From sequence record PV584117.1: a stretch of 50,572 nt of DNA, one strand, 5' to 3'. The stretch comes from Escherichia phage XJA18-XJ-2024. The notes under the pieces were generated by a model. That model searched no databases, had not been told where the DNA came from, and saw nothing but the letters and a program-made list of their open reading frames with translations. Every line of letters begins with the position of its first letter. Within the stretch, counting starts at the first letter, position 1. A program made the translations under genes and the position numbers. Shown here one piece after another: positions 50,057 to 50,509 of this stretch.

Positions 50057-50509
50057 ATGAGTATTCAACGAATCGCTGAGTCAACAGGTGAAATCGATAA
50101 ACGTCACATCAATGGTAACAACGGAACGCGACGCGGTAAAGACAAAAAGCCTCGCCAGCGATGCGGATTCTATATTCACAAAGAAGAAACACGAGCCGGA
50201 CTACGAGCGCGCCTTGATGCTCTTATCGAATATTACGGCGGCCCGGCGGCCTGCGCAAAGGCTTTGAAAGTTAGCAATCAGACCGTGCAAGGCTGGAAAG
50301 ATCGCAATATGATTTCATGGCAAGGTGCTGAAGCTGCGCATCGTGCTTACCGCCGACAGGGGTGTAAAGGATTTCGTGCCGCATGGTTGCGATTCGACCT
50401 GAAGTTTGACGGTAACGGCAAGTGCCTTGAGAAGCGATGCAAGAACAAGAAGTTTATGCGGGTCGTGAAGAAGGAAGATATTGGAACGACAAATAGCATT
50501 TTTAGTTAA
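50057..50509 (+). CDS. HTH DNA-binding regulator (Cro/YdaS-like)
   Basis: about 150 aa from ATG with AGGAGAA RBS; HTH segment GGPAACAKALKVSNQTVQGWKDRNMISWQ. Confidence 0.55.
   Translation: MSIQRIAESTGEIDKRHINGNNGTRRGKDKKPRQRCGFYIHKEETRAGLRARLDALIEYYGGPAACAKALKVSNQTVQGWKDRNMISWQGAEAAHRAYRRQGCKGFRAAWLRFDLKFDGNGKCLEKRCKNKKFMRVVKKEDIGTTNSIFS

Follow-up and report, generated by a model that had tools for sequence, protein, structure and literature searches.

The regulator gene pir of a T1-like phage and a repeated box that heads promoters without a -35 element

The pir locus in a T1-like genome

The gene described here lies near the right end of the 50,572-nt stretch of DNA that we analysed, which we call the window. 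As the sequence-only reading had it, an open reading frame occupies 50057-50509 on the plus strand, running from ATG to TAA and encoding 150 aa; the coordinates of this and the other features are collected in Table 1. The product is identical to the phage T1 protein ST23 at 148 of 150 residues over its full length (E 7e-115), and the region upstream of the gene is nearly identical between the window and T1. ST23 is flanked in T1 by helicase (ST22) and primase (ST24), and the gene order of divergent helicase, pir and primase is the same in T1, Vibrio phage Vc1, Pseudomonas phage Motto and Klebsiella phage KP36, as well as in the closest relatives of the window. The CRISPRi guide against T1 pir matches window positions 50150-50169 with two mismatches. 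Judged by its sequence, the window gene is the ortholog of the T1 regulator (orf23) that Laganenka et al. (2019, mBio; PMC6737242) named Pir, and it is hence already described and not new. Pir is present in 824 phage records, in every T1-like genus sampled.

The 673 bases around pir match 63 sequenced phages at 90-95% identity. Every one is a T1-like (Tunavirus) phage of Escherichia or Shigella whose genome, like the window, measures about 50 kb. It follows that the window is an entire T1-like genome, cut open at an arbitrary point (circularly permuted). This qualifies the claim that pir is the only plus-strand gene in the right arm, which holds in the window as cut but is partly an effect of the linearisation. 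The block of plus-strand genes runs over the window end into primase (with its start at GTG 50570 or ATG 13; the frame is open across the junction), and the tail-fibre gene continues the same block.

Downstream of pir lies a strong intrinsic terminator, and the T1 annotation places a terminator at the same position. With this terminator and a promoter of its own, of the host type, pir is a single-gene unit. The box cassette of the primase gene begins before pir has ended: its box shares bases with the final codons of pir and with the stop codon, and the -10 hexamer of the cassette lies in the loop of the pir terminator, an arrangement that is the same in KP36. Transcripts from the pir promoter would therefore terminate, while transcripts begun inside the hairpin would escape.

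Table 1. Positions of the genes, control elements and protein regions discussed in the text (window coordinates, except for the regions of Pir).
Feature	Position	Strand	Details
pir ortholog CDS	ATG 50057 to TAA 50507-50509	+	150 aa
helicase gene	47944..49962	-	672 aa; GTG start 49962
tail-fibre gene	1034-3379	+	continues the plus-strand block of pir
Orf65 ortholog (T1)	30746..31192	-	86% identical; behind a perfect box cassette, box 31251-31265
pir promoter, host sigma-70 type	49977..50005	+	TTGAAT 49977-49982, 17-nt spacer, TATAAT 50000-50005
pir/helicase box	50029-50043		TAGCAAAAAGTGCTA; read on the minus strand tgTAGCACTTTTTGCTAaaa; perfect TAGCA-N5-TGCTA dyad
pir RBS	50045-50049	+	AGGAG; 7 nt before ATG, 1 nt after the box
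helicase -10	50006..50001	-	TATTAT; exactly 22 nt after the box on the minus strand
helicase RBS	49978..49973	-	AAAGGA; overlaps the pir -35
inverted repeat	49991-49997 / 50018-50024		CGTTTAC / GTAAACG; flanks the shared -10; Tunavirus-specific
pir intrinsic terminator	50517..50556	+	9-bp G+C-rich stem, T-run; dG -17.5 kcal/mol, z -3.4
primase box cassette	50494..50536	+	box TAGCATTTTTAGTTA 50494-50508, 22 nt, TAACAT 50531-50536
Pir, N-terminal arm	aa 1-35		predicted to be disordered; highly conserved
Pir, core			Cro-type HTH; follows the arm
Pir, C-terminal extension			follows the core

pir and helicase share a two-way control region

Transcription of pir probably starts near 50012, which would put the box at about +18 to +32 of the transcript. 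The RBS had been described as abutting a box, and indeed the box (50029-50043) ends one base before AGGAG. Read on the minus strand, the same bases (tgTAGCACTTTTTGCTAaaa) are the oriented 20-mer of the phage family, and they are followed at the fixed distance by the -10 hexamer of the helicase gene. The proposal that the box serves the helicase promoter on the other strand is supported by its position, which is that of an activator site (about -42) at a promoter that lacks a -35 element. The -10 hexamers of pir and helicase overlap on opposite strands and use the same base pairs (TATAATA), and the upstream element of each promoter falls in the transcribed leader of the other.

This layout, with a -35-like hexamer, 16-17 nt, the -10, 22-23 nt, the box and the ATG in that order, is kept in 49 of 49 distinct pir upstream regions. 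The pir -10 is TATAAT in 39 of the 49; on the opposite strand the -10 is TATTAT, likewise in 39 of 49, and stands 21-22 nt from the box. The box itself carries 0-2 mismatches and is separated from the ATG by 11-14 nt (21 nt in one case), and the spacer sequences between the control elements diverge freely. Both the overlapping opposite-strand -10 hexamers of pir and helicase and the conservation of the layout over these 49 regions are new here.

The pir gene is among very few with a strong host-type promoter; for phage TLS, only three such promoters are reported (PMC11447400). In the window, the only others are three in tandem within the A+T-rich region 36482-36811 (-), which head a leftward block of small genes, and the promoter of recE at 5691-5718 (-), with TTGACT-16-TATAAT. 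At recE of KP36, a box-type promoter (ATAGCACTTTTTGACT, 21 nt, TATACT) takes its place; host-type and box-type promoters therefore interconvert between genera.

The box heads a family-wide set of promoters without a -35 element

The dyad between pir and helicase is one of many in the window. TAGCA-N5-TGCTA occurs in 24 copies with at most one mismatch, where 1.6 are expected and none of 100 shuffled sequences reaches 24, and the published repeat consensus, which specifies 16 bases, is matched at 13 or more of them by 25 copies. The half-sites are 5 bp each and lie one helical turn apart. When the copies are compared, the box has a direction and is symmetric only in part (ATAGCAC...TTGnTAAAA): its left part does not vary (ATAGCAC), and the right half-site, TG(C/T)TA, is followed by an invariant A-tract. 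The box is unchanged among genera, including phages isolated on Vibrio and Pseudomonas, and both Pir and the box are present in five of the five complete genomes examined.

The box has already been published as a repeat of T1-like phages. Kropinski et al. (2024; PMC11447400) described a 21-nt 'direct repeat', aaATAGCACnnnTTGnTAAAA, with 21 copies in TLS and further copies in T1, Rtp and Rogue1, that always points along transcription and sits between genes; they suggested that it is a stoperator, an enhancer site or an UP element and did not name a binding protein. The window box matches this repeat in sequence, orientation and intergenic placement. What we add to that description is that box and -10 stand a fixed 22 nt apart, that no -35 is present and that pir and helicase share a -10.

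The placement of the box at about -42, at a set distance from a -10 hexamer and with no -35, is new here and is seen in 18-19 of 25 window copies. A -10-like hexamer (TATAGT, TATTAT, CATAAT and similar) lies 21-23 nt after the 15-mer in 19 of the 25 oriented boxes, at exactly 22 nt in 18 of them, against 6% by chance. For comparison we used 85 genomes or loci (T1, Vc1, Motto, KP36 and 80 IMG/VR loci); in these relatives the hexamer stands at 21-23 nt for 347 of 394 distinct boxes and at exactly 22 nt for 297. The box centre falls at about -42 when the hexamer is set at -12 to -7, the start site being a presumed and not a mapped one. No usable -35 was found 16-18 nt from the -10 in any of the 18 cassettes, where the best candidate matches at most 3 of 6 positions and the mean is 2.1, compared to 2.5 for random sequence. 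These cassettes have G at -14 in 16 cases of 18 and TG at -15/-14 in nine. They show two features of class II promoters, a site at a fixed distance near -42 and no -35. Many also carry a G+C-rich hairpin between the box and the -10, several of which are annotated as terminators in T1; each module therefore resembles an activator-type promoter that is coupled to a terminator.

Could RNA polymerase itself recognise the box, either as an UP-like element or as a displaced -35-like hexamer (TTGnTA)? The cassettes would then be constitutive host promoters, some of them fine-tuned by Pir. The right half of the box, TTGyTA, does resemble a -35 hexamer, A-tracts flank the box, its sequence is invariant across hosts, as polymerase is, and the TLS authors themselves raised the UP-element idea (PMC11447400). 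But TTGyTA stands 22 nt from the -10 and not 16-18. By established promoter geometry, sigma region 4 does not reach that far, and the phase is off by about half a helical turn. The left part of the box, ATAGCAC, contains G+C, unlike an UP element, and the higher activity of the dam promoter (Pdam) requires Pir in uninfected cells (PMC6737242). We consider it quite unlikely that polymerase alone reads the box.

The location of the box in the pir leader also allows for a role in the RNA, where the sequence could fold into a hairpin that covers the RBS or be a site of processing. The box is transcribed there and can form a 5-bp hairpin right before AGGAG; in the roughly 18 cassettes with the box at -42, however, it lies upstream of the presumed start and so is not in their RNA, and we give such a role next to no credence. 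An RNA-level function within the pir leader was also rejected on the basis of folding: the predicted fold is no better than that of shuffled sequence (-5.9 kcal/mol, z +0.2), and it leaves the RBS unpaired. A sigma-54 promoter (TGGCAC-N5-TTGCW) was likewise considered and rejected, given that the box has AG in place of GG, that its spacing is 2 nt short (TAGCAC-N3-TTGCT) and that the hexamer at the fixed distance of 22 nt is a -10 of the sigma-70 type.

Pir is a Cro-type protein with a conserved N-terminal arm

Profile and structural matches to the core of Pir agree with its earlier description as a Cro/YdaS-like HTH protein. Residues 54-84 match the Pfam family P22_Cro (PF14549; E 5e-5, 23.3 bits, below the cut-off of 30.2), and over these residues there is a second match, to YdaS (PF15943; E 1e-3, 19.2 bits, below the cut-off of 30); no Pfam match of the window protein, to P22_Cro or to YdaS, reaches the curated gathering score. 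Precomputed matches to PF14549 and PF15943 exist for several relatives, and PHROG 2856, 'transcriptional regulator', matches the window protein at 2e-76. An AlphaFold2 model made with 24 family members has a mean pLDDT of 82.7, which is low for residues 1-35 (55-60) and above 90 from about residue 40 to residue 140. The model has the five-helix, all-alpha Cro fold with a helix-turn-helix, including helices at aa 43-60, 63-70, 74-83 and 88-100. For the core (about aa 54-115), the top matches by structure and by profile are Xfaso1 Cro, N15 Cro, P22 Cro and YdaS.

The core is the part of Pir that other proteins share. In an exhaustive profile search of 1.84 billion representative proteins, no more than about 20 clusters (at 50% identity) have the whole architecture; the N-terminal arm and the C-terminal extension thus belong to this phage family alone. 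The remoter matches are plain Cro/YdaS-like proteins of 80-100 aa that align only to positions 42-120, and none of the other Cro/YdaS-like proteins among the 1.84 billion has the arm.

We measured conservation on 13 representatives of Pir, each less than 85% identical to the others. The least conserved part is the recognition helix, with a majority-residue frequency of 0.60; between genera it reads SNQTVQGW, SHQTIQQW, NLKTVWGW or CCVRLTNAY. The positions that we take to correspond to the base-contacting ones of P22 c2 and 434 repressor are occupied by differing residues among the homologues. The most conserved part is the predicted-disordered arm, at residues 9-33 (0.90; window 50081-50155). 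In the arm motif STGEIDKR..NGNNGTRRGKDKKPR, several positions are invariant over phages isolated on E. coli, Klebsiella, Vibrio and Pseudomonas.

Some publicly available pir homologs (for example P0010 and loci L057-L061) begin with an extension, 'MFLTKSAI...', that is the translated box (TTT TTA ACA AAA AGT GCT ATT). Their start codons are mis-called, and the true start is the downstream Met.

Published T1 reporter results, mapped to the box

The activity of Pir has been studied in T1 by others. With GFP reporters in uninfected E. coli, Pir acts as an activator of the hol and dam promoters and as a repressor of those of recE and of pir itself; the T1 protein Orf65 represses pir and activates its own promoter, Porf65, which was reported to be independent of Pir (PMC6737242). 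Autoregulation and control of other phage promoters, which had been suggested for the window protein from its sequence, were therefore already published for a T1 Pir that is 99% identical (PMC6737242). Laganenka et al. define no Pir binding site and do not mention the box (PMC6737242), and we found no Pir binding experiment, defined Pir site or T1 transcription-start map in the searchable literature.

We located the published reporter fragments in T1 via their primers. The Pdam fragment contains a box at about -42 and is activated by Pir, and the Ppir fragment contains the box in its leader and is repressed. A simple model in which Pir binds the box leaves three other results unexplained. The Porf65 fragment has a perfect box 22 nt from TATGAT, yet it is Pir-independent and activated by Orf65; this fragment begins only 8 nt before the 20-mer. 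The other two, the Pir-activated Phol fragment and the Pir-repressed PrecE fragment, contain no box; therefore, Pir also acts in another way, or indirectly.

These misfits raise the possibility that the box has another reader (Orf65 in Tunavirus, an unrecognised analogue of it, or a conserved host factor), with Pir acting via a genus-specific operator or directly on RNA polymerase. The place of pir beside the box would then reflect only a compact helicase promoter. In the T1 reporters, Orf65 activates the box promoter of its own gene and, with no Pir present, represses Ppir, Pir has no effect on Porf65, and Pir regulates the box-free Phol and PrecE. Another reader would also fit with an invariant box beside a variable Pir recognition helix. 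But the distribution of Orf65 is narrow: it is found in only 68 records compared to 824 for Pir, and KP36, with 17 boxes and Pir, has no detectable Orf65. As a universal binder of the box, Orf65 was rejected on these counts. Nor does it have a recognisable DNA-binding domain; it has no significant match in Pfam or NCBIfam and matches only PHROG families without known function, and its AlphaFold2 model (pLDDT 55.6) is too poor for a fold search. A host factor, for its part, would need to be common to E. coli, Klebsiella, Vibrio and Pseudomonas, and we know of no host site that resembles the box.

A genus-specific operator could be sought in the CGTAAACG/GTAAACG motifs that Tunavirus Ppir and PrecE have in common near their starts, which include the inverted repeat around the shared -10. 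Genome-wide, the 8-mer occurs 5 times against 1.4 expected and the 7-mer GTAAACG 10 times against 6, a weak enrichment, and the motif is not conserved in other genera. We did not adopt the reading of CGTTTAC/GTAAACG, present in PrecE as well but absent from the other genera, as the Pir operator. With all of this considered, we regard a reader of the box other than Pir as possible but rather unlikely.

Box copies differ in their centre, which is GAA in some and TTT in others. That these subtypes mark separate Orf65 and Pir regulons was rejected: the subtypes swap at orthologous positions (the dam promoter box is of the TTT type in T1 and of the GAA type in Motto), and both are found in phages without Orf65.

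One further candidate is a conserved protein of 383 aa, encoded at 44514..45665 (-) and belonging to the T1 gp16 family, in which an N-terminal HTH with weak similarity to sigma-70 region 4 and LuxR is joined to a calcineurin-like metallophosphoesterase domain. This family is universal among the phages examined. Residues 14-38 give weak matches to Sigma70_r4_2 and HTH_23, and the HTH helix (R33, V35, E36, R38) is invariant in Tunavirus, Webervirus, Vc1 and Motto, unlike that of Pir. However, all of these domain matches fall far below the curated cut-offs (E ~0.02), and the remainder of the protein is a nuclease/phosphoesterase. Its gene has no host-type promoter and lies downstream of a box cassette, so the protein could not start the programme. 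It is very unlikely to be the protein that binds the box.

Pir as a candidate reader of the box

Several observations point to Pir itself. Pir is found together with the box throughout the family, its gene has a host-type promoter, and the Pdam and Ppir reporter results fit the promoter geometry. A Cro-type protein is the classical binder for half-sites that are one helical turn apart. On the other side, the recognition helix varies between genera and the box does not; co-variation of helix and box is not visible because the box is invariant over all helix variants, which counts mildly against readout by the helix. An oriented, partly symmetric box also fits a simple symmetric dimer poorly. 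Given these observations and the three reporter results that do not fit, we find it plausible that Pir is the box-binding protein and put the chances at about even.

The best-supported mechanism is a class II-type switch like that at lambda OR, with a site at -42, no -35 and a shared two-way -10. In this mechanism, the near-consensus host promoter (TTGAAT-17-TATAAT) drives pir and the intrinsic terminator ends the transcript; no phage factor is therefore needed, and Pir can be made from the moment of DNA entry. Lying between the pir start and the RBS, the box would have a double role, as an operator in the pir leader and as an activator site at about -42 for helicase. Pir bound there would block or out-compete RNA polymerase at its own promoter (negative autoregulation) and, like a class II activator, would recruit polymerase in the opposite direction for helicase. 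The same module of box, 22 nt and -10 precedes about 18 other gene cassettes in the window; thus Pir would be what turns expression over from a few early promoters of the host type to the remainder of the genome. Our analysis shows the orthology, the fold and the promoter geometry together with its conservation, and work by others in T1 showed the autorepression and the activation of Pdam; the binding of Pir to the box, the positions of the transcription starts and the contact with polymerase we infer.

A bolder version makes Pir the single master activator of the T1-like phages. Here Pir would bind the box at -42 and switch on about 20 cassettes that lack a -35, reading the box mainly via its invariant, family-only arm and not via the variable helix, and the shared -10 would turn the same binding event into self-repression and activation of helicase. 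As a whole we think this version improbable.

T1, a classic among coliphages, is the type phage of a large family with many candidates for therapy against Klebsiella and E. coli. Our analysis gives a promoter model that can be tested: a box, 22 nt, a -10 without a -35, and a two-way -10 at pir/helicase. If the link between Pir and the box is true, it would at once account for some 20 promoters in each genome of over 800 sequenced phages, and would supply a compact, insulated and activator-dependent promoter set for engineering. If it is false, another factor that binds the box remains to be found.

Comparison with known systems

The closest counterpart is T1 Pir (orf23/ST23), which has the same position between helicase and primase and the same upstream region of promoter, box and RBS. 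There is no difference of substance between the two; they are the same gene in sister phages.

Among better-known regulators, lambda cI at OR2 (PRM/PR), class II CRP sites and FNR all combine a dyad-like site around -42 (near -41.5/-42 for class II) with a weak or absent -35, as here. The likeness to lambda cI at OR2 goes further: here too a protein with a Cro/cI-type HTH, encoded by an autoregulated gene, would use one site to turn one promoter on and the divergent one off. Unlike at lambda OR, the box at pir lies downstream of the start of the repressed promoter and not over its -35, and the two -10 hexamers coincide. Pir also has the conserved N-terminal arm and the C-terminal extension, which Cro and cI do not.

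The Mor protein of phage Mu is a small HTH activator of promoters that have a -10 but no -35, with an imperfect dyad just upstream of the -35 position. Mor and C, the middle and late activators of Mu, are similar to Pir in that they are small phage HTH proteins working on promoters without a -35, the activator role of Pir at the box being a presumed one. In contrast, they have no kinship in sequence or fold to the Cro-like Pir, and they serve a handful of promoters compared to about 20 here. The controller (C) proteins of restriction-modification systems, such as C.AhdI, differ from Pir in controlling only their own operon, in lacking the N-terminal arm and in having boxes of unrelated sequence. 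The Cro proteins of Xfaso1, N15 and P22, together with YdaS, are repressors of lysogeny switches with 60-70 aa, whereas Pir has 150 aa and is reported both to activate and to repress.

Boxes off the 22-nt rule and recurrent leader motifs

Some boxes of the window are placed differently. At the major head gene (19805..20764, -), a reversed box at 20820-20834 (+) lies within the 16-nt spacer of TTGACG-16-TATTAT (20816-20843, -). This placement is operator-like and not that of a -42 site, and it is the same in T1 (15068-15087).

Boxes in the region of the structural genes that depart from the 22-nt rule are found at 10872-10886 (-), 27527-27541 (-), 998-1012, 13119-13133 (-) and 17057-17071 (+). 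In two cases the box has a terminator with a weak -10 on one side and a gene's RBS on the other, the genes being those of a 1150-aa tail protein and of the small terminase. One stands 21 nt before the tail-fibre ATG (1034) and follows TTGCAA-17-TAAAAT. Another is followed by a true terminator and then by TAGAAT about 33 nt away, one helical turn beyond 22. One box of this region is antisense to the late genes but still has TGaTACGAT at 22 nt; T1 shares this arrangement (18832-18851).

Most cassettes also carry recurrent motifs in their leaders, with CATCGAAACGA(G) after the -10 and ACCAATCAGGAG just before start codons; examples are at 47478-47490 (-) and 35096-35110 (-) in the window, and others are found in Vc1 and Motto (L002 and L003). 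The sequence ACCAATCAG occurs 18-19 times in Vc1 and Motto. These motifs may be a conserved initial transcribed sequence or a translation signal.
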